Below, piece after piece: positions 5,855 through 53,067 of a DNA stretch of 64,000 nt. This DNA is from Candidatus Harrisonbacteria bacterium. GTDB lineage: Bacteria; Patescibacteriota; Minisyncoccia; UBA6257; 1-14-0-10-44-23. The position numbers were made by a program, and so were the translations under genes. How positions within the stretch are numbered: position 1 is the stretch's first letter; every line of letters begins with the position of its first letter. Below the pieces are notes generated by a model. The model saw only the letters and a list, made by a program, of their open reading frames with translations, was not told where the DNA came from and did no database searches. Location: NCBI GenBank assembly GCA_023255625.1, contig JAHFLF010000001.1:94255-158254 (forward strand). The letters are read 5' to 3'.

Positions 5855-5860
5855 GCTGGT

Positions 5861-5945
5861 TAGTTAGTTGACTGGTTAGCTGGTTAGTTCGTCGTCTTGG
5901 GTAATCAGTTTTTACTAATTAACCAACTAACGAACTAACTAATTA
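5861..5945. repeat. TTAGTTAG/CTAACTAA-type intergenic inverted-repeat hairpin
   Basis: ctggttagttagttgactggttagctggttagttcg ... ctaattaaccaactaacgaactaactaattaactaa. Arms built from ggttagtt units. Same family recurs at 17981-18068, 27111-27150, 34880-34920, 53068-53165, 53830-53870. Confidence 0.6.
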
Positions 5946-5946
5946 A

Positions 5947-6381
5947 CTAAATCCCTAGTTCCCCCAACCGCTCCGCAATCTCACTCGGCGCAGATTCAAT
6001 CTTTGCTTTGTCTGCGTTCCACGCATCTTCGTCCCAGATCTCTAAGCGGCTATACACGCCGGCAATAACCGCCATTTTTTTGAGGCCTGCGTAGGTACGC
6101 AAAAACTCCGGCACAAGCACGCGACCCTGCGAATCAAGCTCAACCTCGCTTGCACCGGCCAGCATCAAACGCTGAAACGAACGCGCATTAGGATTTGTAA
6201 ACGGCATGGCTTTAATTTTCTGCGCCATTTGCTCCCACTCTGGTTGCGTGAAAACATACAAACACTTATCAAGACCACGCGTGATCACGGCATGCTGGCT
6301 CAAATCAGAACGAAACTTCGCCGGCACCGCCAGCCGTCCTTTGTCGTCTATAGAGTGTTTGTATTCGCCGATGAATGCCAT
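5947..6381 (-). CDS. mraZ: Transcriptional regulator MraZ
   Basis: MAFIGEYKHSIDDKGRLAVPAKFR..., duplicated MraZ fold. First gene of the dcw cluster. Confidence 0.85.
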   Translation of the reverse strand: MAFIGEYKHSIDDKGRLAVPAKFRSDLSQHAVITRGLDKCLYVFTQPEWEQMAQKIKAMPFTNPNARSFQRLMLAGASEVELDSQGRVLVPEFLRTYAGLKKMAVIAGVYSRLEIWDEDAWNADKAKIESAPSEIAERLGELGI

Positions 6382-8194: not shown

Positions 8195-8263
8195 AGTGCG
8201 CGTTGCTGGGATCGGACCAGCGGCCTTTTCAACTTCGCCCCGTACCGTGATGGGCATACTTTG

Positions 8264-8335
8264 TGGGCACTACAGGGATTGAACCTGTGACCTTTCCAAT
8301 GTGAATGGAACGCTCTACCACTGAGCTAAGTGCCC
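8264..8335 (-). tRNA. tRNA-Val (anticodon CAC)
   Basis: Minus read GGGCACT TA GCTC AGTGGTA GAGC G TTCCA TTCACAT TGGAA AGGTC ACAGG TTCAATC CCTGT AGTGCCC A. Canonical cloverleaf, U33 and A37. Confidence 0.8.
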
Positions 8336-8436
8336 ATCTCTGGTACGGGGTGTGAACCCCAGTAGTAGAACCTACTGGTTCACTACGGGGCACGGTGAAA
8401 CGCTCTACCACTGAGCTAAAGACGCCCTTCTTCGCT
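8336..8436 (-). pseudogene. tRNA-like 5' fragment (GGCGTCTTTAGCTCAGTGGTAGAGCGTT...) plus conserved 34-nt hairpin; no matching 3' half
   Basis: The 5' half (acceptor GGCGTCT, D-arm identical to tRNA-Val) is followed by hairpin CCCCGTAGTGAACCAGTAGGTTCTACTACTGGGG (8357-8390). No complementary AGACGCC acceptor strand is present. Fragment gcgaag.agGGCGTCTTTAGC repeats again at 8531-8553. Confidence 0.35.
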
Positions 8437-8622
8437 TGGTTTGGTAACCAAGCTTCGCAAGGGCAAGCAACAATGAATATCACTGCTTGTCCCTCCGGAG
8501 CTTGAGTGCCAACGAGAGCGTAGGGGGAAGCTAAAGACGCCCTACTTCGCTAAACCCTACTGAAGCTTCGCAGGGCAAGCGTAGAACGAGTATAAACAAA
8601 AGAAACCCTTTATTCAAGCAAA

Positions 8623-14190: not shown

Positions 14191-14195
14191 GCCAT

Positions 14196-14232
14196 GTTAC
14201 AGCGTACTAGTACGCTGTAACATGGCAACTAG
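14196..14232. repeat. 30-bp perfect palindrome TGTTACAGCGTAC-TAG-TACGCTGTAACA, copy 2 of 2
   Basis: Identical to 1303-1332. ~80 nt 3' of the rpsP stop. Confidence 0.7.
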
Positions 14233-17972: not shown

Positions 17973-17980
17973 GAATCAGT

Positions 17981-18068
17981 TAGTTTGTTAGTTAGTCCAT
18001 AGTTAGTTAGCAAAAATCGGATACATCTATTGTACTAAGTAACTAACCAACTAACAACCAACTAACCA
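17981..18068. repeat. TTAGTTAG-type inverted-repeat hairpin between smc and Cys-rich gene A
   Basis: cagttagtttgttagttagtcc...ctaaccaactaacaaccaactaaccaa. Confidence 0.55.
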
Positions 18069-18072: not shown

Positions 18073-19803
18073 TCATGCCACCTCTTGCTGGTAACAGGGC
18101 TCACAGTAAACGATCTCGGGCTGTGTTGGCGCGTATGAAGTTTGAATAGGATCCTTGCACTTCTGGCACTCACGATCATAGACCTGGAGCTTGGTGCGCT
18201 GGCTAATGCGGGCAAAGTGGCGGCAGTTTGAGCAAAGCCTCGGGAGCGGCAGATTCATGCTGCGATAAAATGCGAGTTCATCAGGAAGTACGCGGAATGC
18301 AAGCGTACATTGGTCATTGCACGATCCGGCATGCTCGCAGCCAATAATATCTGCAGTAATAGCATCCGGAACGTCCTTAATATTATCCGGTAACTCACTC
18401 GCCGGCTTAGTCACTGTATAGTTGCGCTGTGCCGCATCGCGCCACGTAAAACCACTCGCTTGTGCCTGCTCTTTGGTAAGCGGAAAGTTCTCTTGTGCCA
18501 GCGTCTCGTTGTAGGCAAACGGCGAAAGCTCTGCCGGAAAATACTCGCCATATTTGTAAATCCTCCCCTGTGCATCTAGATATGGCATTGCATCCATCTG
18601 CGCCTTAATCTTTGCAACCAGCGCAACATACTCCTCTTTTGAATACTGCTTGTTTAAAATGCAGTACTCTTTTTTGCGGAGTCCAACGCAGCCAAATAAA
18701 TTTGATGAGGCCTGACACATATACGAATACTCAATGTCATGCACCTGCTCCTGCACGTTGTAGCAAAACTTGATGTTGTTGGTGCCGAGACCGCACGCAG
18801 TGCATTCATAAATCTGCTGGTTACCTGCTCCCCACGCAGTGTAGTCATAACAATCTTTGCTGGCGGGCGTCTCCTGTACATACTGACAGTAACGCAAATT
18901 CTCGCCTTCACGCACTAAAAATGAGTTGCGCACATTGCGAGAGTGGGAAATGTAATTGCCAGAAACATCGGTATTCTGCAGGCCATTAATATACTTATTG
19001 GGGAACTTCAGCCAGAACGCCCTCGCCTGCTCCCGCATAGCCTGCACGGCCGCATACGAACCAAGATTATATTCAGTAATCTTTTTCTCATACTCCTCCT
19101 TCGTATACTGCTCATTCCATATGCAGTAAGACTTTTTACGCAACCCGACGCAACCAAAACAGTTGCTTACGCCGACACAGTCTTTGGAAAATGCAATGTC
19201 GTACGAGCTCTCACATTGCGAAGAAAAAATCGCGTTGCGACACGAAGAAAGCCAAAATCCTTCATAGCATCGCTCAGACTTTTGAAGATGCGAATTATCA
19301 ACGCAATTCTTCACGCCGCCCAGCCCGTTGCCATACATGCAGTCCTCTGCGCCCTGGCCGTTGAAAGTTAAATAACAATTTTTTGGATCAGTAAAATTAT
19401 TCACATAATCACTATTCACGCCATTTACCACATTCAGATTTTTAAGCGGTACGCTGTGGAGCAATTCTTTGAACTGCTCAAAAAATGACTTTGCTTCATC
19501 AAAGTCGCGGCCATAGGTCATCGGGTCCCACAAATCAGAAAGCCAGACATCTTTTTCGTATACCTTCACGGACGAGTCGGGTGCAAAGGCAGAAAAAATA
19601 TCCTTGCCCGAATAATCACTCTTCCGTTTAAATAAAAATCGTTCATTACGAAACGCCATTCTGCGCTGTGCCCGACACAACCAACAAAACGTTGGCGGCG
19701 GCACCGAAACTTTTTTGTAAAATTCCAAATCAGCAGAATCAATAATGAAATCCTGTTTGCAGTTCTGGCAATTTCTAGTTTCCGAGGTTGTCATAGCTAC
19801 CAA
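18073..19803 (-). CDS. Cysteine-rich zinc-ribbon protein, paralog A (576 aa, unknown family)
   Basis: Many cysteines. N-terminal C-x2-C...C-x2-C (CQNCKQ...FCWLCR). Internal duplication FGCVGLRKKSYCIWNEQYTKEEYEKK / FGCVGLRKKEYCILNKQYSKEEYVAL. C-terminal CSNCRH...CQKCKD...YCEPCYQQEVA. Clearly homologous to 22898..24637. Confidence 0.65.
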   Translation of the reverse strand: MVAMTTSETRNCQNCKQDFIIDSADLEFYKKVSVPPPTFCWLCRAQRRMAFRNERFLFKRKSDYSGKDIFSAFAPDSSVKVYEKDVWLSDLWDPMTYGRDFDEAKSFFEQFKELLHSVPLKNLNVVNGVNSDYVNNFTDPKNCYLTFNGQGAEDCMYGNGLGGVKNCVDNSHLQKSERCYEGFWLSSCRNAIFSSQCESSYDIAFSKDCVGVSNCFGCVGLRKKSYCIWNEQYTKEEYEKKITEYNLGSYAAVQAMREQARAFWLKFPNKYINGLQNTDVSGNYISHSRNVRNSFLVREGENLRYCQYVQETPASKDCYDYTAWGAGNQQIYECTACGLGTNNIKFCYNVQEQVHDIEYSYMCQASSNLFGCVGLRKKEYCILNKQYSKEEYVALVAKIKAQMDAMPYLDAQGRIYKYGEYFPAELSPFAYNETLAQENFPLTKEQAQASGFTWRDAAQRNYTVTKPASELPDNIKDVPDAITADIIGCEHAGSCNDQCTLAFRVLPDELAFYRSMNLPLPRLCSNCRHFARISQRTKLQVYDRECQKCKDPIQTSYAPTQPEIVYCEPCYQQEVA

Positions 19804-19822
19804 CCTAATGATACCACCTAAC

Positions 19823-20989
19823 TTAACCTAAAAATTTCTCACTGTGTTTTACCAAATCAGTGTAATAGTTCATATATGAATCAGCCAAGGCTTGATCTTT
19901 TATTTCTATAACCGTCGGGATAGGATCAAAAATCTGCAAAAGTACGGTGCCATCGCTATTGATGTTAATATCAGCCATATTTTGCATGCTCCGCGAAAGT
20001 ATAGATAAATTATTTAAATGCGGACATTCTTTCGCGAGCCGCCTGTCTTCTTCACCATATTCATACATCAACATATCCCACGCAATATTCTTTTTGACAC
20101 GCAGTGCATCGTATTCTTTGTACGCGTTTCCCATCGGCCCGTACCATGTGTTTCCTAATCCCCCGATGATTGTAATCCGACTATTTTCAGGTAACCGATT
20201 GAGCAATGCTAAATGATATGCCTGAAACTCTTCCTTGCCGGAATATATTTTTACATTAGACGCGCCCAAGGAGGCGTTGGCAATGAAATTACTGATTCGT
20301 TTATTTTTTGACTCCAAAAGAAATTCATACGACTTTCCTTTTTTAATAATTTCCCCGTTTTCCATAAAGCAAACCGTATCGGCATTGGAAATGGCAAAAT
20401 TAATGTCATGTGCAACCATGAGAATACCGACGCCTCTTTTTTTAATCGCAACTAAGTGCGACAAAATAATTTCTGACTGCTCAACATCAAGCGAAGAGGT
20501 AATCTCGTCTAATAATAAATACTGCGGTTTGAGGGCAAGCGCGCGTACGAGCGCCACCCGTTGCCGCTGTCCGACCGAAGCCTCATTCGGAAAACGGTCA
20601 AGAAAACCTTTCATCTCAAACATTTCATAGAGCTCCTCAAGATACTCTGTGTTATCTTTTAAAGCGCCCCGCACTTCAAGTGGTAATTCAATATTTTTCC
20701 GAAGCGTCAGGTGCGGCCAAATAAACAATTGCTGAAAAACAACGGAAACCCGCGGCCACGGCGGGACAATGTCTTGAGGGGCCAGAGGGAAAGAGTATCC
20801 AGTAGAATCTATTGTCATTGTCCCTGTTTCGGGCAAATCCAACAAAGAGATTGCCTTGAGCAGTGTCGTCTTGCCGCTTCCGCTTGGGCCGATTATAGAA
20901 GTAATCGTTCCTGGTTTAACCTCTAAGCTAACGTTACGCAAAACAACATGGTCACCGAATTTTTTTGTTATGTTAGTTACTCGCAACAT
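19823..20989 (-). CDS. ABC transporter ATP-binding protein (amino-acid type) with ~140-aa C-terminal extension
   Basis: Walker A GPSGSGKTT, signature LSGGQRQRVALVRAL, Walker B LLLDEITSSLD. Start at MLRVTNITKKF (ATG ~20989), overlapping the permease stop. The extra C-terminal domain is unassigned. Confidence 0.85.
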   Translation of the reverse strand: MLRVTNITKKFGDHVVLRNVSLEVKPGTITSIIGPSGSGKTTLLKAISLLDLPETGTMTIDSTGYSFPLAPQDIVPPWPRVSVVFQQLFIWPHLTLRKNIELPLEVRGALKDNTEYLEELYEMFEMKGFLDRFPNEASVGQRQRVALVRALALKPQYLLLDEITSSLDVEQSEIILSHLVAIKKRGVGILMVAHDINFAISNADTVCFMENGEIIKKGKSYEFLLESKNKRISNFIANASLGASNVKIYSGKEEFQAYHLALLNRLPENSRITIIGGLGNTWYGPMGNAYKEYDALRVKKNIAWDMLMYEYGEEDRRLAKECPHLNNLSILSRSMQNMADININSDGTVLLQIFDPIPTVIEIKDQALADSYMNYYTDLVKHSEKFLG

Positions 20990-20990
20990 A

Positions 20991-21671
20991 TTATTTTTCG
21001 GACAAGTTTCTCGTGTATTTATTTTTGAACCAATATGCGAGTAGATTAAGCGGTAAGCAGATTGCGATGAAGAACACGGCAAGTGCTGTATAGATTTCTA
21101 TGGGCTTGTACACTACCGAGTTAATCTGTTGCGCCACACGAAAAAGCTCTGAGACAGAAATCAGACTGGCGAATAAAGTCAGTTGAAGCATGCTGACTTG
21201 CAGGGTAAGAAATTGCGGAATAGTCTGGCGAAAAATAATCGGCAGCTCTATTTTTGAAAAAATTTCTCTCGCTGTAAGTCCGCACACCTTCCCCGCGATC
21301 ACATACTGATCTGGAAAATCATCCAGCGCATCTCTAACTATTTGAGCAACGCCCACAATATTAATTAAGGAAAGTGCAAATGCTGCGGTTATGAATGGAA
21401 TAATCACGACCCCAAGAAGCGCTTGGAGTGGATAATGCAGCCAGAACAAAAGCACTAAAACTGGCGTACTCGCCAAAAGAAAAGAAAGAATTTTAAGAAA
21501 CCAACCGGTACTTTCTTTTTGCCGATGCGCAAACGCTCCAAAGAGTACGCCGAAAACCAAGCCCGAAAACCAAATAATCAGGCACAATCCAAGAGTTACA
21601 AGAAGGCCTGATAGCAGGCCTTCTTTGTAGGTGTAAATTATATTCCACACTGACATACGGTTACTTGGCAA
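20991..21671 (-). CDS. ABC transporter permease (polar amino-acid family)
   Basis: Multi-TM. EAA-like loop ...ALDDFPDQYVIAGKVCGLTAREIFSKIELP. Confidence 0.8.
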   Translation of the reverse strand: MPSNRMSVWNIIYTYKEGLLSGLLVTLGLCLIIWFSGLVFGVLFGAFAHRQKESTGWFLKILSFLLASTPVLVLLFWLHYPLQALLGVVIIPFITAAFALSLINIVGVAQIVRDALDDFPDQYVIAGKVCGLTAREIFSKIELPIIFRQTIPQFLTLQVSMLQLTLFASLISVSELFRVAQQINSVVYKPIEIYTALAVFFIAICLPLNLLAYWFKNKYTRNLSEK

Positions 21672-22539
21672 CTACATATGGCGGCGCAGCCCGGTAGAAA
21701 CCGCCCGGGTAGTCTTTTTCAAATCCGTTGATTACGCCGTCAACATAGCCGTTATTCAATAATTCAATAAGAGCATTATCAATGGTTGACTTGAATGTAA
21801 ACTCTCCCTTTTTGATCATCATGACATTGCCGTAGATGACGACCGGCTTAACAACGGAAACATTTTTTACTTTCCCGGGGTTATTTTTTATGTACGCATT
21901 GGCAACTGTCGGCTCTAAAAATGCCATATCAACTTTGCCATCAACAACATTGAGAAGCATTTGAGAAACGTCTGTCAGCTGCGGCAATTGGAGAGTCTTA
22001 GCATTTGGGAATTGGCGAGAAGCGATCAGTTGTGATGTTTCTCCGTCAATAGTCGCTAATTTATAATTTGCGTTATTCGCAACCGTTACATCACTGTTAA
22101 ATCTATTATCACTGGCGCGGACATATGCGTTAATAGCGCTATAGTAAACGGGCTCCGAAAACTCCGCACTTTTACCGCGTGTTGAATTACTCCACGACGG
22201 AGAACCGATAATGTCGCATTTGCTGGAATTAAGGGCTTCAATCATATCTCCCCAACCAACTTCGGTATTCCAATCAACTTTCAGGCCCATATTTTCTGCC
22301 GCCTTGTCCAACGTTTGCACGAACACACCTGATAATTTCCCGGTATTGGGGTCTTTAATAGAGGCCGGCGGGTAGACGACATAGCAAGCCCGTATAGTGC
22401 CGGAACTAATTACTCTGTCGTACACGGAACTCCCTGCTAAACTTACCGGCGAAGAACCGGACAATTTTATCGTAATTAAACTCACTACGACAGTCAGAAT
22501 CACAACGCCAAGGATTTTGAACCAATTTCCATTTTTCAT
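21661..22539 (-). CDS. ABC transporter substrate-binding protein (family 3 / PBPb, polar amino-acid type)
   Basis: N-terminal TM anchor/signal, then periplasmic-binding-protein type 2 fold motifs. Operon with permease and ATPase. Confidence 0.75.
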   Translation of the reverse strand: MKNGNWFKILGVVILTVVVSLITIKLSGSSPVSLAGSSVYDRVISSGTIRACYVVYPPASIKDPNTGKLSGVFVQTLDKAAENMGLKVDWNTEVGWGDMIEALNSSKCDIIGSPSWSNSTRGKSAEFSEPVYYSAINAYVRASDNRFNSDVTVANNANYKLATIDGETSQLIASRQFPNAKTLQLPQLTDVSQMLLNVVDGKVDMAFLEPTVANAYIKNNPGKVKNVSVVKPVVIYGNVMMIKKGEFTFKSTIDNALIELLNNGYVDGVINGFEKDYPGGFYRAAPPYVVAK

Positions 22540-22605
22540 AATTAATAAAGATATTTGATAATAATGATACCACGCTCATAGCGGCTCACTTTTGCCCGAC
22601 GAAAA

Positions 22606-22755
22606 CAAAAGAGCGCCCAACTTAGAGCCTTTCTCGGCTCGTGGTCGCTCAAATTCAGATCCGAAGGTGCGATCTCGCTTTCGTCCGCACGCTCAGATCA
22701 AAATTCAATACTACGCATTCAAGATAGCATGAATTCAAAATCCTGTCAATCCCCC
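22606..22755 (-). promoter_or_regulatory. Conserved ~110-nt 5' leader element, copy a (upstream of the ABC operon)
   Basis: Shares the core ...cagatcc.aag.gcgat.t.cg...c.cgctcagatc.aaa.tcaat.c... with 24700-24810 and 25375-25505. Minus-strand RNA ends in a U-rich tail right before the SBP start. Confidence 0.55.
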
Positions 22756-22800
22756 GCTGTTATACTAATTCCACGGCCGTTGAATTAGTATAACAGCGAC
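22756..22800. repeat. 17-bp perfect inverted repeat hairpin
   Basis: cgctgttatactaattc cacggccgt tgaattagtataacagcg, then ctttattttt. Confidence 0.55.
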
Positions 22801-22823
22801 TTTATTTTTACTAACTAACCGAC

Positions 22824-22897
22824 TCACGCCACCTCTTGCTGATAGCACCCCAGTACTAGAACCTGCTGGTTCAGTACGGGGCATGCTCAATACACAA
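22824..22897 (-). other. Insertion with a conserved 34-nt hairpin (22848-22881) plus a displaced original gene end (synonymous duplicate of the last 8 codons of gene B)
   Basis: Minus read: current end TGT TAT CAA CAA GAG GTA GCA TAA, then spacer + hairpin CCCCGTACTGAACCAGCAGGTTCTAGTACTGGGG, then TGC TAT CAG CAA GAG GTG GCG TGA (same CYQQEVA*, every difference at a third position), then the ggttagtt repeat as found after gene A. Confidence 0.6.
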
Positions 22898-24637
22898 TTA
22901 TGCTACCTCTTGTTGATAACATTCTATGCAATATACTTTTTCGGGCCGGTCGGGGGCGTACGAAGTTTCAAATTGATTTTGGCATTGGGTTTCACCGTGC
23001 TGGTGCGTGGCCGCTCCCGGGCACTGACACGAACGCGGCCAGAGTGTAAGAGGATTGCGTTTCGCAATGCGCTCATAATGGCGGCAGTTTGGGCAGAGCC
23101 GCGGCAATGGCAATGATGCAAGTTTATAGAGAGTCAGGTCTTCCGGCAAAATTCTGAATGCGGTCGTACACTGATGCATGCATCCGTTATGAGCACAACT
23201 TATAATTGCCTTGGTCACCTCATCGCCAGCATCTGCGGCAGAATCCGGCAACTCATCTGGCTGCATCGTAATTTTATAGTTACGCTGCGGTTCATCTCGC
23301 CAGCCATAGCCGGCCACAATAGCATCTTCTTTTGAGAGAGGGAAGAAATCGTGCCCCATTGTTTCGTTGTACACAAATGGCGACAAATCACTTGGAAAAA
23401 ATTCGCCGTACTTGTAGACAAGCCCGCGCTTATCAATATATGGCGTCGTGTCCATTTGCATTTTTATCTTTCCGACCATCGTCTCATACTCCTCTTTGGT
23501 GTATTGCTTGTTCAAAATACAGTACTGACTTTTTTTCATACCAACGCAACCAAACAAATCTTTAGATCCGTGGCAGTTCATGACATATTCGCAATCAATG
23601 ACTTGCTCCCAGCACTCATTGGCAAATTTTAAATTGGCTATTTGTCTACCACAGTTTTGAACTTCATACATACGCTCGGCCGTCGCTCCCCAATGGTTAA
23701 AATCCATTGAATCTTTTGCATCAAAAAGCGAAAGCCCGTACCGAACATTCTGAACATTACGACAGGTGAAAGAACGGGAGACATCCTGACAATGGTCAAT
23801 CCAGTTGCCGCTCACTCGCATCCCTTGGCGCACAACAAGAGCCGGGACAATGAACTGTCTTTTAAATTCATCAAATTTTTTGCGAAGCAGCTCAACGGAA
23901 CGAGCCGAATGTATATTGAGTTCAGCAATTTTTTTCTCATACTCCTCTTTAGTGTACTGTTCGTTCCATATACAGTACTGTTTATTTTTCAAATTTACGC
24001 AGCCGAAAGAATTTTGAACATTCATACAGTTCAGCAAAAACCACGAGTCCGAGCAGTTATTTGATTCTTGCGAAAAGGCAACGCTGTAGCACTGCGAACA
24101 ATCAATGCACTCATAACACCGCTCTGATTTTTGTGTGCCAAAACAATCTAAACACTCTTTTGAGGACATAATCCAGGTACTATACCGAGAGTTTTCCGCG
24201 CCGGTCGTTGCAAACACAAGATAACAATTTTTCATATCTGTTACCCGATTTGTATACTCACTATTGATACTCTGACCCTGCTTGATAATGCCCGGGCGAG
24301 GCACGGCAAGCAGCAATTCTTTGAACTGCTCGAAAAATGGCCGGGTAAAATCGTAATCGCGCGCATATGTTTTTGCATCCCACGACTCTGACCACCAGCA
24401 CGGATAGCAAAAAACAGAATGAGGGCTGTCTGGGCTGTACATCAAAATCTTTTCCTGCTTGCAAAGTCCGCATGGACGCTTAAATAGTGTTCGCTCACTA
24501 CGCCAAATAAATCGCCGGAGCAGCCGGCACTGCGGACAAAATGTCGGCTCGGGTACTTTAAGCATGGTTAAAAACTCCGTGTCCTCCGCGGTAATTTCAA
24601 ACTGCTGCTTGCACTGCTGACAATTTTTTGCTGCCAT
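22898..24637 (-). CDS. Cysteine-rich zinc-ribbon protein, paralog B (579 aa)
   Basis: Same architecture as 18073..19803 (~45 % identity by eye). Internal duplicate FGCVNLKNKQYCIWNEQYTKEEYEKK / FGCVGMKKSQYCILNKQYTKEEYETM. Extra N-terminal CGLCKQ...CYPC ribbon. C-terminal ...YCIECYQQEVA. Confidence 0.65.
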   Translation of the reverse strand: MAAKNCQQCKQQFEITAEDTEFLTMLKVPEPTFCPQCRLLRRFIWRSERTLFKRPCGLCKQEKILMYSPDSPHSVFCYPCWWSESWDAKTYARDYDFTRPFFEQFKELLLAVPRPGIIKQGQSINSEYTNRVTDMKNCYLVFATTGAENSRYSTWIMSSKECLDCFGTQKSERCYECIDCSQCYSVAFSQESNNCSDSWFLLNCMNVQNSFGCVNLKNKQYCIWNEQYTKEEYEKKIAELNIHSARSVELLRKKFDEFKRQFIVPALVVRQGMRVSGNWIDHCQDVSRSFTCRNVQNVRYGLSLFDAKDSMDFNHWGATAERMYEVQNCGRQIANLKFANECWEQVIDCEYVMNCHGSKDLFGCVGMKKSQYCILNKQYTKEEYETMVGKIKMQMDTTPYIDKRGLVYKYGEFFPSDLSPFVYNETMGHDFFPLSKEDAIVAGYGWRDEPQRNYKITMQPDELPDSAADAGDEVTKAIISCAHNGCMHQCTTAFRILPEDLTLYKLASLPLPRLCPNCRHYERIAKRNPLTLWPRSCQCPGAATHQHGETQCQNQFETSYAPDRPEKVYCIECYQQEVA

Positions 24638-24699: not shown

Positions 24700-24810
24700 A
24701 CAACAAAAAGCGGCAAAATATATTGCTCGCTTCAATCCAGATCTAAACGCGCGATTTTCGACTATCCTCACGCTCAGATCCAAACTCAATGCTCTATGAT
24801 TACTTTAGCA
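24700..24810 (-). promoter_or_regulatory. Conserved 5' leader element, copy b (upstream of Cys-rich paralog B)
   Basis: Minus-strand RNA has stems GAUCUGAGCG / CGUUUAGAUC (compensatory pairs relative to the other copies). A terminator-like AAGCGAGCAA..UUGCCGCUU + UUUGUUGU sits ~60 nt before the ATG. Confidence 0.55.
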
Positions 24811-25374: not shown

Positions 25375-25505
25375 AAAACAAAAAGAGCCCTCAACGCGAG
25401 TGCTCAAATACAGATCCTAAAGCGCGATTTTCGACTATCCTCGCCGTAAGACCTACATTCAATGACAAAATAAGATTAGCATATCATAGCCAATCTGTCA
25501 ATCTC
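25375..25505 (-). promoter_or_regulatory. Conserved 5' leader element, copy c
   Basis: 22 nt (agcgcgattttcgactatcctc) identical to copy b. Minus RNA ends GAGCACUC GCGUU GAGGGCUC UUUUUGUUUUUU, a terminator-like hairpin plus U-run just upstream of the ORF. Confidence 0.55.
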
Positions 25506-26861: not shown

Positions 26862-27110
26862 ACAGTATTCGCAAACACGCTAATAAAAACTAATACGCTA
26901 ATCATACACGAAGTCAATCAATTCGTGTATTCGCGATTATTCGCGTGTTAGTGATTGCTGGCCCACTTCTTCGGAATAATCCGATGCGGAAATGTCGGCA
27001 TCTTTGTCGCCTTGTCTGCAACAATGTTCAGCGGCTTGAGCGCTAAATGAGAACGGCGGCGGCGGACTTTTCCGCTTGTCGGATGTTTTGGAGGTAGTGA
27101 ACCCATATAA

Positions 27111-27150
27111 ACTAGTTAATCGGTTAGTCAGTTAGTTGGTTAGTTAGTTT
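27111..27150. repeat. TTAGTTAG-type repeat cluster
   Basis: ctagttaatcggttagtcagttagttggttagttagttt. Confidence 0.5.
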
Positions 27151-27293
27151 AAAACTCGGAAGCAATGCAAAAAAGGATACCAGGAAGATAAAAAAGATGC
27201 AAATTTGGAAATTTATTTTGTCGGGGCGGCGCGCTTCGCGCACCGCCCCGACGACTGCCCGCCTTGGGCGGGCTTACCCCCTGGAGAGCGGAG

Positions 27294-27950: not shown

Positions 27951-28160
27951 TACAAAAATTTGCTATACTCTGCATGTTAGTTTCTCGTTTTTTTCTGGAT
28001 TGCCGCGCCCGTCCGCCAGAGGCGGACAAGCTCGCAATGACAGAAAAGAGGAAAAACTAAAATTAAATTATTCTCCTTATGTCCAAGTTCGTACATTTAC
28101 ATACCCCGAACCAGAGCCCGCTGGCACGGTACGGGGCTTCGCTCACTACCTCCTCCCGCT

Positions 28161-31100
28161 ATGAGTAAGTTCGTTCATTTACATACTCATAGTCACTATT
28201 CGTTGCTGGACGGGATGAGTAAAATTCCAGACTTGATTGCTAAAGTCAAAGAGTTAGGAATGACTGCGGTTGCAGTTACTGACCACGGAAATCTTTACGG
28301 TGCCGTTGAATTTTACAAAGAAGCAACTAAAGCCGGCATCAAGCCGATTCTTGGTGTTGAGGCCTATATCGCGCCCGGCGATCACAAAGATAAAAATGCA
28401 GGGGTTGGCGAGGACAAGTATTATCACTTGATTCTTTTGGTTAAAAACGAAACGGGCTGGAAAAATCTACTACAACTGGTGACAGAGTCCTGGCTGCACG
28501 GCTTTTATTATCGCCCGCGCATGGACAAAGCGATGCTACGCGAACGGCACGAAGGACTTATCGCCACTTCAGCGTGTCTGGGCGGCGAACTCTCGCAGCT
28601 TATTTTAAAAAATCAATTAGACGCGGCAGAAAAACTGATTTACGAATATCAAGAAATTTTTGGTAAGGAAAATTTTTATATTGAAATTGGGCGGCATCCA
28701 AAAATTGCTGATATTGAAAAGGTAAATCCGCACCTGATCGCGCTATCAAAGAAAACAGGCGCTCCCCTTGTGGCAACGCAGGACAGCCATTACTTAAATG
28801 CCGATGACAAAGATGTCCATGATATTCTCCTCGCCATCCAAACCGGTAAGAAAGTCAGTGACCCAAAAAAGTTTACGCTGACTGATGACTTTTCGGTAAA
28901 AAGCGGCGAGGAGATGGAAAAAATATTTGCCGATCTACCAGAGGCCATAGAAAACACGACAAAAATCGCCGACCAGTGCACCTTTAAACTTGAGCTCGGC
29001 AAAATTTTGCTACCGAAGTTTGACACGCCCGACGGCAGCGAGTCAAAAGTCTATCTGCGGAAACTTATTGCAGAGCGGACGCAGGAGCGCTATTCGAATC
29101 CGGACGAGATAACCAAACAGCGCATTGAGTACGAACTTGGCATTGTTGAACGCACCGGTTTTGCCGACTACTTTTTAATCGTGCAGGACTTTATTAACTG
29201 GGCCAAGGATCGTGGCGTTGTGGTCGGCCCGGGCCGCGGATCTGCCGCCGGAAGTATCCTCTCCTATATACTCCGTATCACCGACCTTGACCCGATACAC
29301 TACGAACTGCTTTTTGAACGCTTCTTAAACCCGGAACGAATTCAAATGCCGGATATTGACGTGGACATCACCGATGTTCGCCGCGACGAGGTCTTTGGAT
29401 ATCTGAAAGAGCGGTACGGCGAGGACCGAGTTGCCCACATTATTACCTTTGGAACCATGGCTGCGCGTGCCAGTATCCGCGATGTCGGCCGCGCCTTAGA
29501 CATTGAACTCGCCTTCTGCGACCGGCTCGCCAAGCTCATCCCCTTTAATAAAGACCTTGATGAATCACTCGGCGAGGTTAGCGAGCTTGCACAACTGTAT
29601 AAAACTGACGAACGGGCCAAAAAAATTATAGACGCCGCAAAAAAATTAGAGGGTGTTGCCCGCCACGCCTCGGTACACGCCTGCGGCACGGTTATTGCGG
29701 CTGAACCGCTGCCGCTGCGCGTTCCGCTTCAGCATGCGCCACAGGACGAGAATGTAACGCTTACGCAGTTTGAAATGCACTCCATTGAAGACCTAGGTAT
29801 TTTGAAAATTGATATTCTGGGACTTAAAAACCTGACTATAATAGAAGATACGATTCGGCTGGTGCAGGAAAAAACTAGTGAGCTGCTTAATTTGAGCACT
29901 CTGCCGCTTGATGACAAACCAACTTTTGAACTGCTCCAGCGCGCCGACACGGTATCGGTTTTCCAGCTTGAGTCGGGCGGTATGCGGCGGTACTTAAAAG
30001 AATTAAAACCGACCGAGCTAGAAGATATCATCGCAATGGTATCTCTCTACCGACCCGGACCGATGGAACTTATTCCTTCATATATTGCTCGCAAATTTGG
30101 TAAAGAAGCCGTTACTTATCTGCACCCAAAGCTAGAGCCGATCATGAGTAAAACATTTGGCATCGGCATCTACCAGGAGCAGATGATGCGCATCGCCAGC
30201 GACCTGGCCGGCTACACACTTGCAGAGGCCGACACGCTGCGTAAAGCCATTGGTAAAAAAATCAAAAAACTTTTAGACGAGCAGGAGGTTAAACTTGTCC
30301 AGGGCATGATTAAAAATGGTATCCCCGAACGCACCGCGCGCGCTATCTGGGACCTATTTCCGCCATTTGCCCGTTATGGGTTTAACAGAAGTCATAGTGC
30401 ATGTTACGCCATGATCGCCTACCGCACCGCCTACCTCAAGGCACACTACCCAACAGAATTTATGACTGCAGCACTTAACTCCGATAGCAGTGACATTGAT
30501 CGCATCTCATTTTTAATCGGCGAGGCAAAAAAATCTGGCGTGCAAGTGCTCCCGCCGGATATCAACAAGAGCGCGCAAAAATTCGCACCCGAGGGCTCGC
30601 ACATTCGATTTGGCTTAGATGCTGTTAAAAATGTTGGATCCAATATTGTTGCCGCAGTGATTGAGGAGCGAAGCCGTGGTGGTGAGTTTGCAACATTTAA
30701 TGACCTGCTCACCCGCGTGAAACACAAAGATTTAAATAAAAAATCGCTTGAGTCTCTGATTAAATGCGGTGCGCTAGACTCATTTAATATTGAACGCAAC
30801 ACTTTACTCGGCAGCATTGATGAGATTACTAAGTTTGCCCAGACGGCGCGCAAAACAGCAGGCAACGAGACTGGTCAATCAGCCGGACTCTTTGGCGCAA
30901 GCTTTGTCTCAACCGCCGCGCCAAAAGCACTACAACTGAAAGATGCAGCACCGGCCACCAAAAAAGAAAAATTGGCGTGGGAAAAGGAATTGCTCGGCCT
31001 GTATGTTTCAGATCATCCCCTCTCTATGCACGCTGACATGATTGCGACGATGAAACCGTCAAAGATAAAAGATATTTTATTAGAACGATCAAATGTTAAA

Positions 31101-31343
31101 AATTATCGCGTCTGCGGCATGATTAATTCGGTCAAGTCCATCATCACCAAAACCGGTAAGCCGATGTGTTTTGCAAAAGTTGAGGATCATACCGGTTCAG
31201 TCGAAGTTGTGGTATTTTCGGATATATATGTTCAACATCAGCAATGTTTTAAAGAGGGCGCGGTTGTCGTCGTTGTCGGAAAATTAAATTTTAGAAATGG
31301 TGAGGTTTCGCTGGTCGCCGACCAGGTAAAGGAGATACAATAA
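28161..31343 (+). CDS. dnaE: DNA polymerase III alpha subunit
   Basis: PHP domain N-terminus HLHTHSHYSLLDG, polymerase core and OB-fold C-terminus. 1060 aa. Confidence 0.95.
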   Translation: MSKFVHLHTHSHYSLLDGMSKIPDLIAKVKELGMTAVAVTDHGNLYGAVEFYKEATKAGIKPILGVEAYIAPGDHKDKNAGVGEDKYYHLILLVKNETGWKNLLQLVTESWLHGFYYRPRMDKAMLRERHEGLIATSACLGGELSQLILKNQLDAAEKLIYEYQEIFGKENFYIEIGRHPKIADIEKVNPHLIALSKKTGAPLVATQDSHYLNADDKDVHDILLAIQTGKKVSDPKKFTLTDDFSVKSGEEMEKIFADLPEAIENTTKIADQCTFKLELGKILLPKFDTPDGSESKVYLRKLIAERTQERYSNPDEITKQRIEYELGIVERTGFADYFLIVQDFINWAKDRGVVVGPGRGSAAGSILSYILRITDLDPIHYELLFERFLNPERIQMPDIDVDITDVRRDEVFGYLKERYGEDRVAHIITFGTMAARASIRDVGRALDIELAFCDRLAKLIPFNKDLDESLGEVSELAQLYKTDERAKKIIDAAKKLEGVARHASVHACGTVIAAEPLPLRVPLQHAPQDENVTLTQFEMHSIEDLGILKIDILGLKNLTIIEDTIRLVQEKTSELLNLSTLPLDDKPTFELLQRADTVSVFQLESGGMRRYLKELKPTELEDIIAMVSLYRPGPMELIPSYIARKFGKEAVTYLHPKLEPIMSKTFGIGIYQEQMMRIASDLAGYTLAEADTLRKAIGKKIKKLLDEQEVKLVQGMIKNGIPERTARAIWDLFPPFARYGFNRSHSACYAMIAYRTAYLKAHYPTEFMTAALNSDSSDIDRISFLIGEAKKSGVQVLPPDINKSAQKFAPEGSHIRFGLDAVKNVGSNIVAAVIEERSRGGEFATFNDLLTRVKHKDLNKKSLESLIKCGALDSFNIERNTLLGSIDEITKFAQTARKTAGNETGQSAGLFGASFVSTAAPKALQLKDAAPATKKEKLAWEKELLGLYVSDHPLSMHADMIATMKPSKIKDILLERSNVKNYRVCGMINSVKSIITKTGKPMCFAKVEDHTGSVEVVVFSDIYVQHQQCFKEGAVVVVVGKLNFRNGEVSLVADQVKEIQ

Positions 31344-34727: not shown

Positions 34728-34919
34728 GTAATGTCTTTCACGATTGCCTCCTTACCGAAACGACAATGCGCCGTTTGGAAAATCAGAATATAATATTTTT
34801 TATATTTAGTCAATTTTCCCAGTTGCACTACGGCTAATTTTTTGCTAAAATATATCTATCGTTTTTAAATTTCTCTTACGCATTAACCGACTAACTGTCG
34901 ACCGACTAACCGACTAACT

Positions 34920-38400: not shown

Positions 38401-38417
38401 GGCACAAATATCGCAGA

Positions 38418-38510
38418 TTTGCTTTTTAGAGGGACTCTCGGAGCGCGACGGCGCGAGAGCGAGGGCAATTTTTCAGCAGAAAAATATGCCTGTGCCCTCT
38501 AAAAAGCAAA
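38418..38510. repeat. Hairpin-core element copy 1: conserved ~60-nt core inside a 17-bp palindrome, at the gyrA 3' end
   Basis: ttgctttttagagggac [ctctcggagcgcgacggcgcgagagcgagggcaatttttcagcagaaaaatatgcct] gtgccctctaaaaagcaa. Core shared with copies at 46073-46195, 51268-51370, 61125-61245. Confidence 0.7.
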
Positions 38511-38521
38511 GCTGCGATATT

Positions 38522-38536
38522 TGTGGTATCATAAAT
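38522..38536 (+). promoter_or_regulatory. tgtggtatcataaat motif (variant of a recurring extended -10-like box)
   Basis: Same tgtggtatactaaat motif occurs at 43746 and 53543. Here it is only ~4 nt before the ATG, which would imply a leaderless transcript. Confidence 0.25.
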
Positions 38537-44352: not shown

Positions 44353-44402
44353 AATTCCCAATACCATAAATCTACCATGGTAGATTTATGGTATTGGGAA
44401 TT
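44353..44402. promoter_or_regulatory. 50-bp perfect palindrome centred on CCATGG (site 1)
   Basis: aattcccaataccataaatctaccatggtagatttatggtattgggaatt. Shares core ataccata..tctaccatggtaga..tatggtat with 45056-45087. Confidence 0.55.
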
Positions 44403-44430: not shown

Positions 44431-45045
44431 CTAAATCTTAACCTGGAGATTCTTGCCTGGAAATCGCAGTGTGCCAGATTTCGTTATTTCAAAAATATCA
44501 ACATACTGAGTTAAATTGGCTTCGGCGAGATCATCAATAAAACTCTCCGGTATCTGTCGTTTACCGATAAAAAGACTTCGCTGCAAAAATCGAAAACCAA
44601 ACTGACCAAGAGCACCCCTCAACCAATCGCGCTGTTGCCGCATCGTATGTGGAATATCATACGCAATAATAGTGACGCGATCGCTGGGCGTAGCAACATA
44701 TTTTTTTGCGCGTACGATATCAGAAAGATCATTTTCATGCTCATGGACCCAAGTTTTCCCTGCCTGCGTCATACTATAATGAGCTTCACGACCAATTCTG
44801 GTACTCTTAATAAGTCCGTCTTGCTTTAATGCTTGAATCAACCGTTGCGCGCGTTTCCATTCAAGTCGTTTTTGATGCTCATCAAAATGCTTCTTGTCAT
44901 ACTGCTGGCGAACCTGTTGCGCCGCCGCAAAACCCGCCCGAATCCCCCTCTGACGACCAAAGCCGCCACCAATCAAAAAGGATGCTATCTCTGCACTGGT
45001 ACGACCGACATCTGACAAAAAATATAAAATCTGTTTTCTCTTCAT
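44431..45045 (-). CDS. winged-HTH + Cas2-like (VapD/PaaX-C-like) domain protein, putative regulator (204 aa)
   Basis: C-terminal ...VTIIAYDIPHTMRQQRDWLRGALGQFGFRFLQRSLFIGK... resembles the Cas2/PaaX_C ferredoxin-like fold pattern (YD....RR..LR..L...G.R.Q.S.F). Assignment is tentative. Confidence 0.4.
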   Translation of the reverse strand: MKRKQILYFLSDVGRTSAEIASFLIGGGFGRQRGIRAGFAAAQQVRQQYDKKHFDEHQKRLEWKRAQRLIQALKQDGLIKSTRIGREAHYSMTQAGKTWVHEHENDLSDIVRAKKYVATPSDRVTIIAYDIPHTMRQQRDWLRGALGQFGFRFLQRSLFIGKRQIPESFIDDLAEANLTQYVDIFEITKSGTLRFPGKNLQVKI

Positions 45046-45055
45046 GCGTACATAA

Positions 45056-45087
45056 TACCATATTTCTACCATGGTAGAAATATGGTA
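45056..45087. promoter_or_regulatory. 32-bp perfect palindrome centred on CCATGG (site 2), ~11 nt upstream of the start of the 44431..45045 gene
   Basis: taccatatttctaccatggtagaaatatggta. The aa..tt versus tt..aa swaps relative to site 1 preserve dyad symmetry. Confidence 0.55.
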
Positions 45088-45127: not shown

Positions 45128-46048
45128 TTACCTCCTGCGACCATGAAACGCTTTGTGTACTTCGCCAAGCTGCTTGTTAGTCAGGTGCGTATAAATCTGC
45201 GTTGTGGCAATGTTGCTGTGGCCAAGCATTTCCTGAACCGAGCGTAAATCGGCCCCGTTAACCAACAGGTCTGTTGCGAAGAGATGGCGCAGTTTGTGCG
45301 GTGTTATGTGTTCTGCAATACCGGCTTTGCGCGCATAAAAATTGACCAGCTGTTGCACGGAGCGCGGAGAGATCACGCCAAGCACCCTCGGTGGTTTTTT
45401 CGATTTTAAAGATGGCTTACTCAACCCAACAAACAGCCACTCCTGCGCGTCGCCACGCTTGTCTAAATACCGCTTCAAAATCTCGCGACAGCTGTCTGAT
45501 AAAAACACTACGCGTAACTTCTCTCCTTTCCCGCGCACGGTAAACTCACCGCGGCTAAAATCAATATACCGCTTTAATCCGCAAAGTTCGGAGACACGCA
45601 GCCCGGTTGAAAACAAGGTTTCTAAAATGGCGCGATCGCGGAGCGCGCGCAAGCCATCCCCCTCTGGTGCAGCAAGGAGCCGCTCGAAGTCGCGATACTC
45701 CGGTATCTGAATCTGGCGCTGGGCAATTTTTGGCAGCTCAATTTTATCGGCTGCAAGCACATCATAATCGTGTTTGGCCAGATACTTTAAAAAACTGCGA
45801 ATCGCAATAACATAATAGTTCTGCGTGATTTTCTTCAGCATCGCGCCATCCCGTCCGGGCGTACGTGCAAGCGTGATGCGGAATTCACGAACCACCGACT
45901 CGGTAATCTGACTTGGCTTACTAATTTTTTGCTGGCGAAAAAACGAACTCAAATAATGTTCATAATTAACCCTCGTCTTCGGCGAGCGATTCTTTTCAAT
46001 CTCTAAATAATCCAAATACTGCTTGAGAAGGTCATCAATTTGAGCCAT
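45128..46048 (-). CDS. Tyrosine site-specific recombinase, XerC/XerD-like
   Basis: N-terminal SAM-like domain, catalytic R...HKLRH...LGHSNIATTQIYTH. Start at MAQIDDLLKQY. Confidence 0.8.
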   Translation of the reverse strand: MAQIDDLLKQYLDYLEIEKNRSPKTRVNYEHYLSSFFRQQKISKPSQITESVVREFRITLARTPGRDGAMLKKITQNYYVIAIRSFLKYLAKHDYDVLAADKIELPKIAQRQIQIPEYRDFERLLAAPEGDGLRALRDRAILETLFSTGLRVSELCGLKRYIDFSRGEFTVRGKGEKLRVVFLSDSCREILKRYLDKRGDAQEWLFVGLSKPSLKSKKPPRVLGVISPRSVQQLVNFYARKAGIAEHITPHKLRHLFATDLLVNGADLRSVQEMLGHSNIATTQIYTHLTNKQLGEVHKAFHGRRR

Positions 46049-46072
46049 CCTGTAAGTATAAACTAGATGTTT

Positions 46073-46195
46073 CGTAAAACATATTCGGGTCAGCGCTAGC
46101 GGCAATTCTCGGACCGCGACGGCGGGAGAGTATAGACCGATTTTTCACCAGAAAAATACGGACGGTGCCGTCTGCGCTGACCCGAATATGTTTTA
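46073..46195. repeat. Hairpin-core element copy 2 (inside a 20-bp perfect palindrome)
   Basis: gtaaaacatattcgggtcagcgc [tagcggcaattctcggaccgcgacggcgggagagtatagaccgatttttcaccagaaaaatacggacggtgccgtct] gcgctgacccgaatatgttttac. Confidence 0.7.
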
Positions 46196-53066: not shown

Positions 53067-53067
53067 G

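Follow-up and report, generated by a model that had tools for sequence, protein, structure and literature searches.

Recoded gene ends beside a conserved hairpin in Patescibacteria: a candidate family of miniature mobile elements

Why should a bacterial gene carry its last codons twice, in two different spellings, with a hairpin between the copies? The question is raised by gene B, which encodes a Cys-rich protein in a 64,000-nucleotide stretch of the genome of a Candidatus Harrisonbacteria bacterium (GenBank assembly GCA_023255625.1, contig JAHFLF010000001.1, positions 94,255 to 158,254 of the forward strand), referred to here as the window. We propose, with moderate confidence, that the Patescibacteria, or Candidate Phyla Radiation (CPR), harbour a family of miniature, non-autonomous mobile elements for which this hairpin serves as the cis-acting end, and that at gene B the hairpin belongs to a discrete, homology-directed cassette. 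The hairpin family is apparently undescribed: a literature search with the hairpin sequence and with keywords returned no description of it, and Rfam gave no match, either for the window at the gathering threshold or for positions 22780-22960 at E-values of up to 10.

The doubled end of gene B

On the minus strand, gene B terminates in CYQQEVA*, and its TAA stop codon is followed by 12 nt, the tetranucleotide CATG, a 34-nt hairpin (CCCCGTACTGAACCAGCAGGTTCTAGTACTGGGG, 22848-22881) and a second copy of the gene end. We refer to the in-frame copy as X1 and to the copy behind the hairpin as X2 (Table 1). They differ at 5 of 24 nucleotides, all of them synonymously, and the similarity between the two flanks of the hairpin has a p of about 0.01 against shuffles. 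X2 runs on into GTCGGTTAGTTAGT, and the repeat GGTTAGTT, found here at 22810-22820, also follows the end of gene A, a paralogue with 47% identity to gene B. The hairpin, the second end with its synonymous third-position changes and the shared repeat had each been pointed out in a first-pass annotation of the window, and all are borne out.

Gene B has thousands of homologues, of which those with a named source all come from Patescibacteria/CPR or unclassified bacteria, the closest non-self sequence being 61% identical; searches of Pfam and NCBIfam gave no domain match. Nearly all homologues terminate in CY..EV(A/V)*, and therefore both X1 and X2 encode the native C-terminus. Syntenic orthologues (RNase III ... 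gene B, then a paralogue), the comparison that had been recommended at the outset, have plain, uninterrupted ends and no hairpin, none of them belonging to a close relative. Two other assemblies of the same population carry an identical, filled gene B allele; the organism is present in samples ERZ27297344 and SRR14366769. A Logan contig (SRR14366769, L133), an independent assembly of this population, breaks exactly within the hairpin.

Which copy is the original? X2 had been taken for the original gene end, and at gene B this view gains indirect support from the GGTTAGTT flank and from codon composition. X2 is 88% identical to the end of gene A, X1 80%. The G+C content at third codon positions (GC3) is 5/8 in X2 and 1/8 in X1 (2/15 over the last 15 codons), compared with 0.48 for gene B and 0.52 for the open reading frames (ORFs) of the window. 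Thus X2 would be the native end, although a direct match to relatives is available only for rpsI and ychF in other genomes (see below), and we infer that X1 is an imported replacement end with which the spacer ttgtgtattgag came in. The 17-bp inverted repeat at 22755-22798 is probably the original 3′ structure of gene B.

The hairpin itself has a near-identical counterpart beside tRNA-Val (8357-8390, minus strand), as the first-pass annotation had reported; chance predicts no match to the 34-nt sequence (100 shuffles). Two of the three differences between the copies amount to a compensatory G-C to C-G swap in the stem and the third is a loop position. The two copies share one fold, in which successive helices of 4, 5 and 5 bp are separated by single bulged T residues and capped by a tetraloop, with a dG of -11.1 kcal/mol and z-scores of -4.5 to -5.1. 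Together with hairpins of a second type (type B, in distinction from type A at gene B), the window holds three to four copies.

Several features of the surroundings are recorded here in their own right. The octamer GTTAGTTN (GGTTAGTT/ACTAACTA) forms runs in many intergenic regions, on either strand and often right after stop codons (5859-5950, 17979-18066, 22805-22823, 27107-27156, 34875-34918, 53066-53164 and 53827-53870); it offers TAG or TAA in several frames and constitutes a genome-specific intergenic signature. A ~63-nt element (reverse complement ...CATTGAGTTTGGATCTGAGCGTGAGGATAGTCGAAAATCGCGCG...) is found upstream of gene B, a 172-aa ORF and the SBP gene (22640-22700, 24729-24791 and 25402-25464), and in a relative with a 57% identical gene B protein the paralogue has a similar sequence in front of it (L059, 3410-3475); the element may be a conserved leader or cis-regulatory RNA. 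The ~580-aa Cys-rich family of genes A and B occurs in tandem paralogue arrays of 2-3 genes, sometimes 5 nt apart and adjoining RNase III, in several CPR genomes (L057-L060) as well as in the window (18073-24637), and one member has been labelled "putative phage protein" by one source.

A hairpin family and its insertion sites

A pattern scan, fixing only 21 bases, of the 185,579 species-representative genomes of GTDB returned 50 loci, about 45 of them true hairpins, which define a type-A family with one to three loci per genome in Saccharibacteria, Magasanik-, Doudna-, Gribaldo-, Nealson-, Yanofsky-, Komeili- and Azambacteria, Paceibacterota and Minisyncoccia. The hairpin is constant among hosts with GC contents of 32-53%. 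Its consensus (33-36 nt) reads CCCCGTAGTGAACC-(3-6 nt)-GGTTCTACTACYGGGG or is a GTACT/AGTAC variant, the arms CCCCGTAGTGAACC-loop-GGTTCTACTACTGGGG including two bulged T residues. None of 2.9 million viral contigs matches the type-A pattern, and a looser scan of them gave six matches, mostly unrelated palindromes, with no convincing family member.

Conservation of the hairpin is strand-specific. In an alignment of 36 type-A sequences, 99.6% of cells are paired and 6 pairs show compensatory change, while single-sided changes comprise 7 of the G.T type and 2 that leave bases unpaired. The G.T-type changes are tolerated only on the CCCCGT strand, which is hence the folded strand. A covariance model scores type-A hairpins at 55-57 bits on this strand and 18-20 bits on the opposite one; for the gene B copy the values are 55 bits (minus strand) and 18 bits (plus strand).

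The minimal unit consists of a 3-4-nt prefix (CYTG, TTTA or GAAG) and a hairpin of 30-36 nt. Among the 50 type-A copies the prefix most often conforms to the pattern C (33 copies), T/C, T (31), G (41), with TTTA or GAAG as the other forms, and the first position after the hairpin (+1) is T in 34 and C in 12. By eye, the only relation between the prefix and either the target or bases +1 to +4 is that of a G at -1 with a T or C at +1. Prefix and hairpin occur without any duplication at several loci: TTAA plus hairpin within an already displaced tRNA fragment (L019), CTTG and CCTG plus hairpin at the same position of a 5S rRNA copy (L046, L049), and CTTA and CTTG plus hairpin between T stem and T loop of a second tRNA-Ile (L036, L040). 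At L041, three units stand in tandem. The right end of the unit, the last G of the hairpin, is exact in every case; the left end reaches variably into donor DNA.

When loci are oriented so that the hairpin reads CCCCGT, a common architecture emerges, in which the gene body runs into X1 and is succeeded by a spacer of 2-57 nt, the 4-nt prefix, the hairpin and finally X2. X2 starts at +1 to +3 and is a diverged copy of X1, which lies 20-90 nt upstream and is contiguous with the functional gene. At least 20 of the ~45 type-A loci show this duplication, of which random insertion would yield essentially none. X is the 3′ end of a gene on the hairpin strand, or the 5′ end, including the start codon, of a gene on the other strand; about 40% of hairpin copies sit at gene 5′ ends, on the antisense strand. 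For 3′ and 5′ ends alike, the side of the hairpin that bears the functional copy is constant and does not depend on the strand of the gene, which argues for a mechanism at the DNA rather than the RNA level.

The targets include the 3′ ends of a secA-like gene (CHGA*, L015), rpsI (...ARRAPQFSKR*, L016) and ychF (VVE(I/F)KI*, L024 and L032), and the 5′ ends of uvrA (L014, L038), clpP (L010), lepA (L007) and a further gene (L011). RNA genes are also affected, namely tRNA-Ser (L020), tRNA-Arg (L013), tRNA-Ile (L019, L036, L040) and 5S rRNA (L046, L049), with an intact copy on the left and an interrupted copy containing the hairpin. The position of the junction is constant within the ychF, uvrA, 5S and tRNA-Ile target families. 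In a Nealsonbacteria genome (L028) the target is a homologue of gene B (37% identity, E 1e-130), and the junction lies 7 nt from that in the window, which marks it as an independent event; there, X2 together with its flanking sequence is similar to the terminal part and flank of the neighbouring upstream paralogue.

The divergence between X1 and X2 is purely synonymous. In nine clean protein cases, 44 of 68 codons are changed with 0 amino-acid changes, and the changes include switches between serine codon families (AGC/TCA and TCC/AGT); over all cases, 52 of 68 nucleotide differences fall at third positions. In 5S rRNA the differences are compensatory within a helix. X2 is therefore no decaying local duplicate, and by their sequences both copies have evolved as functional gene ends.

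Comparison with relatives identifies X2 as the native and X1 as the foreign copy in the rpsI and ychF genomes. For rpsI, the two nearest relatives (L134 and L135; 80-83% protein identity, L17-L13-S9 synteny) are uninterrupted, and their last 33 nt match X2 at 30/33 and 27/33 positions, compared with 24/33 and 23/33 for X1. Over the 27 nt that adjoin X1 on its left, identity to L134 is 26/27; the foreign tract thus sets in abruptly, at the AAAAAAG|C junction. Uninterrupted relatives of the ychF genome L032 (75-77% identity) match X2 at 19/21 and 17/21 and X1 at 16/21 and 15/21. In these two genomes, then, the alignments establish empty sites in relatives and a native X2, with a sharp left boundary. 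Moreover, across ten cassettes the GC3 of X2 tracks host GC (rho 0.75, p 0.013) and that of X1 does not. The original suggestion that gene B had received an inserted element with its own replacement end is thus supported, with parallels at 20 or more other CPR loci, two of which have relatives that match X2.

Type-B hairpins, counted at 71 loci in one metagenome scan, combine an internal loop with an apical stem. The apical part is always self-complementary, in unrelated sequences of 4-30 nt with a freely covarying stem. The prefixes are drawn from the same repertoire as in type A, position +1 is taken by C or T, some units form tandem arrays (L067, L071), and X2 duplicates from +1 are present at a minority of loci. 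Two further observations concern metagenome loci. Various genes have, immediately upstream of their start codon, a conserved ~130-nt composite that could be a portable two-hairpin leader module (L066, L070, L085-L088, L101, L126); its layout is CAT(start, reverse complement)-aattttatttttta-[type-B hairpin]-ctcaattaatttcYTG-[a further hairpin, variable in type]-ttcgactttttg. Type-B hairpins are also often preceded by related ones (CCCCGAACCAGAG..CACGGTTCGGGG, GCCCTGAACCAGAG..CACGATTCAGGGC and CAGGGTAGTAGAACC..GGTTCACTACCCTG; L063, L064, L082, L090, L096, L098, L103, L110, L111, L115, L121, L124, L127), which points to a wider set of elements inserting side by side in CPR metagenomes.

A third element of the window came to light in a scan for CCCC...GGGG hairpins. 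It is of type B and lies at the start of dnaE (28161..31343, by Pfam), the new start copy occupying 28161-28185. Both start copies encode MSKFVHLH, with the serine codon TCC in X2 and AGT in X1. The old start opens an upstream ORF (uORF) of 29 codons (28079-28168) that passes through the hairpin and stops 3 nt past the new ATG, a layout that would allow termination-reinitiation. Similar uORFs are present at uvrA and clpP in other genomes, and at L038 the hairpin is read in frame.

The tRNA-Val site is more complicated. A type-A unit (CGTG plus hairpin) sits in the former anticodon loop of a truncated tRNA, with TTCACA from +1, and the duplicated tRNA 5′ fragments previously described beside this hairpin are indeed present, at 8396-8427 and, as a 14-nt copy of the truncated tRNA start, at 8529-8542. 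A type-B hairpin is split around the intact tRNA, with prefix TTCG and arms CCCCGTACCGTG (8238-8249) and CTCTGGTACGGGG (8338-8350), and encloses a 9-nt duplicate of the tRNA 3′ end (8251-8259). A ~115-nt tandem repeat lies upstream. A ~52-nt direct repeat with a spacing of 115 nt (8414-8468 and 8529-8580; GCTTGCCCT.GCGAAGCTT...AGCGAAG.AGGGCGTCTTTAGCT) terminates in each copy in the first 14 nt of the truncated tRNA, which suggests repeated rounds of insertion at this locus.

Table 1. Coordinates of gene B, its hairpin cassette and related features of the window
Feature	Position	Strand	Basis or remark
Gene B, 579-aa Cys-rich protein, host gene of the putatively replaced end	22898..24637	-	ORF
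X1 of gene B, in-frame last 7 codons and stop, TGT TAT CAA CAA GAG GTA GCA TAA	22898..22921	-	Low GC3
12-nt spacer ttgtgtattgag between X1 and prefix	22886..22897	-	No counterpart after X2 or gene A
4-nt prefix CATG at the 5′ foot of the hairpin, of the family-wide C-Y-T-G class	22882..22885	-	Flank logo
Type-A hairpin, conserved cis element; 3′ foot forms the junction with presumed native DNA	22848..22881	-	Covariance model, fold, pair counts
X2 of gene B, last 7 codons and stop, TGC TAT CAG CAA GAG GTG GCG TGA, from +1 of the hairpin	22824..22847	-	Comparison with X1 and gene A
Native intergenic motif GTCGGTTAGTTAGTAAAAA after X2, likewise after gene A and other genes	22805..22823	-	Repeat comparison
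17-bp inverted repeat downstream of X2, without T run	22755..22798	-	No terminator call
Uninterrupted end of gene A (paralogue), CYQQEVA* followed directly by GGTTAGTT repeats	18073..18096	-	Shows how an empty site would look in this genome
Type-B hairpin split around tRNA-Val	8234..8350	+	Compare compact copy at 28104-28136
Intact tRNA-Val(CAC)	8263..8335	-	ARAGORN; Rfam 72.8 bits
Second type-A hairpin (8357-8390) and prefix CGTG (8391-8394)	8357..8394	-	Fold, covariance model
5′ half of a different tRNA, to the anticodon stem, 32 nt	8396..8427	-	Acceptor GGGCGTC versus GGGCACT in tRNA-Val
X2 of dnaE, presumed displaced native start, ATG TCC AAG TTC GTA CAT TTA CAT A, abutting the hairpin	28079..28103	+	Codon comparison
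Type-B hairpin CCCCGTACCGTGCCAGCGGGCTCTGGTTCGGGG (28104-28136) and prefix GAAG (28137-28140)	28104..28140	-	Covariance model 14.9 bits; overlooked in the first-pass annotation
Putatively imported 20-nt leader (28141-28160) and X1, new dnaE start, ATG AGT AAG TTC GTT CAT TTA CAT A	28141..28185	+	Codon comparison

The window contains other repeats that are noted here for completeness. A perfect 28-nt palindrome, TGTTACAGCGTACTAGTACGCTGTAACA, recurs at two intergenic sites (1300-1332 and 14195-14227) and may be a shared terminator or protein-binding site. A ~70-nt sequence without an Rfam match (GGGACTCTC..GACGG..GAGAGCGAGGG...CCTGTGCCC) is present in three copies that are 79% identical (38403-38525, 51264-51390, 61146-61215); two of them are flanked by 31-33-nt inverted repeats at a spacing of 61 nt, in the manner of a small structured repeat or a miniature inverted-repeat transposable element. 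Directly after tRNA-Leu lies a perfect 50-nt palindrome (44353-44402), and a related 34-nt palindrome (45054-45087) is found on the far side of ORF 44431-45072, next to an Xer-like recombinase gene (45128-46105); these may represent a dif-like region or else a small unit capable of inversion or movement. Finally, a tandem array of about 15 copies of the 10-nt unit CTAGCAGCCT (50219-50466), with an inverted partner block at 50219-50277, is located upstream of ORF 50525-51163.

How the cassettes may move, and what else they might be

On the reading that we favour, the element would insert in one orientation, without target duplication and usually between a G and a pyrimidine. The 74-nt gene B cassette would comprise the last 7 codons and stop of a foreign orthologue (X1), 12 nt of its 3′ flank, CATG and the hairpin. 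Placed in register with the homologous codon, it would have left gene B finishing in a foreign synonymous copy, and the gene's own end (X2) displaced and untranslated directly behind the hairpin, still followed by native intergenic DNA. A like event with a variant hairpin would have taken place at the dnaE start, and a related but compound one at tRNA-Val.

The hairpin may act as folded single-stranded DNA that is recognised by a trans-encoded enzyme, HUH/Y1-like or tyrosine-recombinase-like, and this enzyme would link the hairpin, at its 3′ foot, to target DNA on the 5′ side of a pyrimidine. After horizontal uptake of DNA, the 5′ segment of the cassette would base-pair with the homologous gene end, the 20-75 nt of X1/X2 homology guiding it to the same conserved terminus. 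Such homology targeting would explain why homologous sites are enriched, why X1 and X2 share their left boundaries and why only highly conserved termini are hit. The replacement terminus would render insertion into essential genes harmless, and the divergence of X1 from X2 could guard the insert from deletion by recombination between the copies. A role as RNA seems unlikely because the folded strand is antisense to the gene in the 5′-end cases. The model makes specific predictions: an empty gene B allele would read ...ATAGAA joined directly to TGCTATCAG, a circle or tandem cassette junction would join ...TACTGGGG to TGTTATCAA, and in a donor the natural end and flank of the gene B orthologue would contain TGTTATCAACAAGAGGTAGCATAATTGTGTATTGAG.

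Several points weigh against this proposal. No enzyme has been identified and no gene recurs around the loci: all-versus-all BLAST of the ORFs around 45, then ~110 loci, retrieved only the target genes and NYN-domain genes, which are probably merely abundant in CPR. Pfam searches of 39 ORFs of the window found housekeeping genes (gyrA, dnaE, rsmH, trmD, RNase III) and one recombinase, the Xer-like gene at 45128-46105, which is 17-37 kb from the three cassettes; by its gene content the window is a normal piece of chromosome. The hairpins show no orientation bias relative to GC skew (17/45), and a replication-tied single-strand mechanism predicts such a bias. About half of the type-A loci and most type-B loci have no duplicate. 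The tRNA-Val site is compound and breaks the simple rule, and no single-event reconstruction of it was achieved. No donor lineage was found for any X1, and cassettes that share a target across classes resemble one another no more than their host genes do. At gene B itself, the databases hold no close relative of the source genome and the native status of X2 is argued from flank and composition; the comparison with two other assemblies of the same population showed no excised or circular form and no polymorphism within the population.

Alternatively, the hairpin could be a structured element of use to its host, for example as an mRNA-end stabiliser, processing site or leader module, that lacks transposition chemistry and is spread by transformation and homologous recombination. 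In keeping with this, many copies lie 2-57 nt past stop codons on the sense strand, a two-hairpin leader module precedes different genes at six or more metagenome loci, and 5′ ends have layouts suggestive of uORFs and reinitiation. We nevertheless think it unlikely, given the lack of a T tract or terminator call, the mixed orientation relative to genes, a joint that falls precisely at the last G of the hairpin every time, and the 37-nt insertions in 5S and tRNA pseudo-copies and tandem arrays. Furthermore, two-sided homologous recombination cannot yield the duplication of X or a sharp left boundary at ~25% divergence.

A more elaborate possibility is guide-directed homing, a natural form of cleave-and-rescue drive. 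Here the hairpin and X2, as RNA or single-stranded DNA, would serve as scaffold and guide for a trans-encoded nuclease or recombinase. Uninterrupted alleles in other cells, in which the left-hand sequence still adjoins X2, would be cut and the cassette copied in by repair, while the recoded X1 and the hairpin flank would make carriers immune. This would fit an X2 that always begins at +1 of a conserved, strand-specifically folded hairpin, an X1 near synonymous saturation with an unchanged protein, conserved targets typical of homing elements, and the constancy of junction position within ychF, uvrA, 5S and tRNA-Ile. We regard it as quite unlikely all the same: the nuclease was not found, the folded strand is antisense in the 5′-end cases and has no evident promoter, many units lack X2 homology, known OMEGA or Cas scaffolds are larger than the 34 nt available here, and ordinary divergence between orthologues accounts for the recoding with no need for selection for immunity.

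The first-pass annotation had seen in the cassette a ~70-bp footprint of a larger element. In a conventional version of this idea, an island or prophage of kilobase size, encoding a tyrosine or serine integrase and a replacement end, would have entered the 3′ end of gene B by Campbell recombination and later been deleted down to attL, hairpin and attR (the left and right attachment sites). Replacement of gene and tRNA ends is classical for integrative elements, junctions in tRNAs fall, as those of P4-type integrases do, within the T loop or the anticodon loop, and at one locus (L017) two hairpins lie 1.8 kb apart with the same flanks. The idea does not stand up well, and we hold it to be very unlikely. 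The compact form of 60-110 nt recurs as the complete form, in more than 20 genomes; minimal 37-nt units of four nucleotides plus hairpin and tandem units also occur. No integrase or shared gene was seen within 5 kb of ~110 loci, the viral contigs yielded no type-A match and, on looser scanning, no convincing member, the foreign tract has sharp ends, and there is no identical att core, X1 and X2 often differing within the first 3 nt.

We give next to no credence to a local tandem duplication, or chance, around a pre-existing hairpin followed by drift, since, common as short tandem duplications are and despite the ~115-nt repeat at tRNA-Val, a drifting non-coding copy should show non-synonymous changes (0 among 44 changed codons at nine loci), the hairpin is common to phylum-level lineages and absent from relatives, and zero chance matches are expected.

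Other candidates were rejected outright. The concern that the hairpin might be a common terminator motif is answered by the absence of a T run at +1 to +12 and of any terminator call, with ~40% of copies antisense at 5′ ends. A diversity-generating retroelement is at odds with differences that are synonymous and of all types, a repeat of only 24 nt and the lack of a reverse transcriptase in the window. A CRISPR array or Rfam RNA family was dismissed given tandem copies only 3-4 nt apart and no Rfam match, and translational bypass, a group II intron domain V and a dif-like Xer site were rejected on sequence grounds. A recent common origin of cassettes that share a target was likewise discarded, there being no excess similarity across classes.

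If the proposal of a homology-directed cassette is correct, CPR bacteria, whose tiny genomes are thought to be poor in mobile DNA, harbour 37-nt hairpin elements across the superphylum, and these rewrite the first or last codons of dnaE, uvrA, clpP, secA, rpsI and ychF, as well as tRNAs and 5S rRNA. Beside splicing (introns, inteins) and intergenic insertion, there would be a third route to harmlessness, in which a terminus is replaced by a foreign synonymous copy, and each cassette would record, with a date and a direction, that DNA had passed between distant CPR lineages. Targeting is apparently set by a short homology arm on a small hairpin; if confirmed, this would be a new compact principle of programmable insertion and a possible entry point to the genetics of organisms that cannot yet be manipulated. 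Were guide-programmed homing true instead, a natural programmable cleave-and-rescue system acting on essential gene termini across CPR would be categorically new. In practical terms, the duplicated gene-end fragments, tRNA fragments and uORFs that stem from these elements mislead gene callers.

Comparison with known systems

The hairpin cassettes are a variant of two known themes, miniature hairpin elements and insertions that replace gene ends. The former are exemplified by repetitive extragenic palindromes (REPs), their doublets (REPINs) with REP-associated tyrosine transposases (RAYTs), and the palindrome-associated transposable elements (PATEs) derived from IS200/IS605, which depend on Y1 HUH transposases. 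Like the hairpins, these are short palindromes, imperfect and with extrahelical bases, that function as single strands in folded form, are strand-specific and non-autonomous, and leave no target-site duplication; a GTAG motif, as in REPs, is present in most hairpin copies. A recoded copy of the target is not known from any REP or PATE. REPs also occur inside repair and replication genes (PMC3733652), but the features described there do not fit the hairpin family, and identity with REPs was rejected. In the hairpins GTAG is internal (stem positions 5-8, 36/50) or replaced by GTAC (12/50), and the ends are CCCC/GGGG with no terminal tag. REPs are high-copy and species-specific and often form inverted doublets, whereas the hairpins are low-copy and near-identical across classes and their arrays are direct. 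No RAYT/Y1 gene was present within 3-5 kb of ~110 loci or in the window. IS200/IS605 elements share the 37-nt insertions without duplication, the G.T-tolerant strand and the strand asymmetry of the covariance model, but differ in having subterminal hairpins at both a left and a right end rather than one hairpin with a variable left end, and a fixed tetra- or pentanucleotide target rather than simply ...G|Y....

Integron cassettes resemble the hairpin cassettes in consisting of variable DNA with a 3′-terminal hairpin (attC) that is recombined as a folded single strand. Extrahelical bases set the active strand, as the two bulged T residues of type A might, the apical part is variable as in type B, and crossover next to G|T(T), orientation-specific insertion without duplication and tandem arrays are further parallels. 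The hairpins are shorter (33-36 nt, compared with 57-141 nt for attC), lack the R''-L''...L'-R' order with its RYYYAAC/GTTRRRY cores and cross over at the foot of the stem and not within the R box. There is no intI/attI platform in the window or at the loci; insertion is into housekeeping genes and appears to be directed by the cassette's own 5′ homology.

Integrative elements that enter gene 3′ ends, such as P4-like islands and the integrative and conjugative or mobilizable elements found in rpsI, rpmG and tRNA-Lys, likewise bring a replacement end, leave the displaced native copy at the far junction and target rpsI and the T loops or anticodon loops of tRNAs. By contrast, a whole hairpin cassette measures 60-110 nt, with 16-57 nt from X1 to the hairpin, has no integrase, kilobase cargo or identical att core, and may replace gene 5′ ends, including start codon and leader.

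Homing elements (group I introns, inteins, free-standing homing endonuclease genes and the mitochondrial mobile ORFs that duplicate a C-terminus) have in common with the hairpin family their highly conserved sites in essential genes, a patchy spread over distant lineages and neutrality to the host; mitochondrial mobile ORFs even leave a displaced C-terminal pseudo-copy in some cases. Unlike them, the hairpin cassettes involve neither splicing nor an encoded endonuclease, and would be harmless by virtue of terminus replacement. The arrangement of a recoded, functional essential-gene end beside the original target is, lastly, reminiscent of synthetic cleave-and-rescue and home-and-rescue drives, a likeness to be taken as an engineering analogy.

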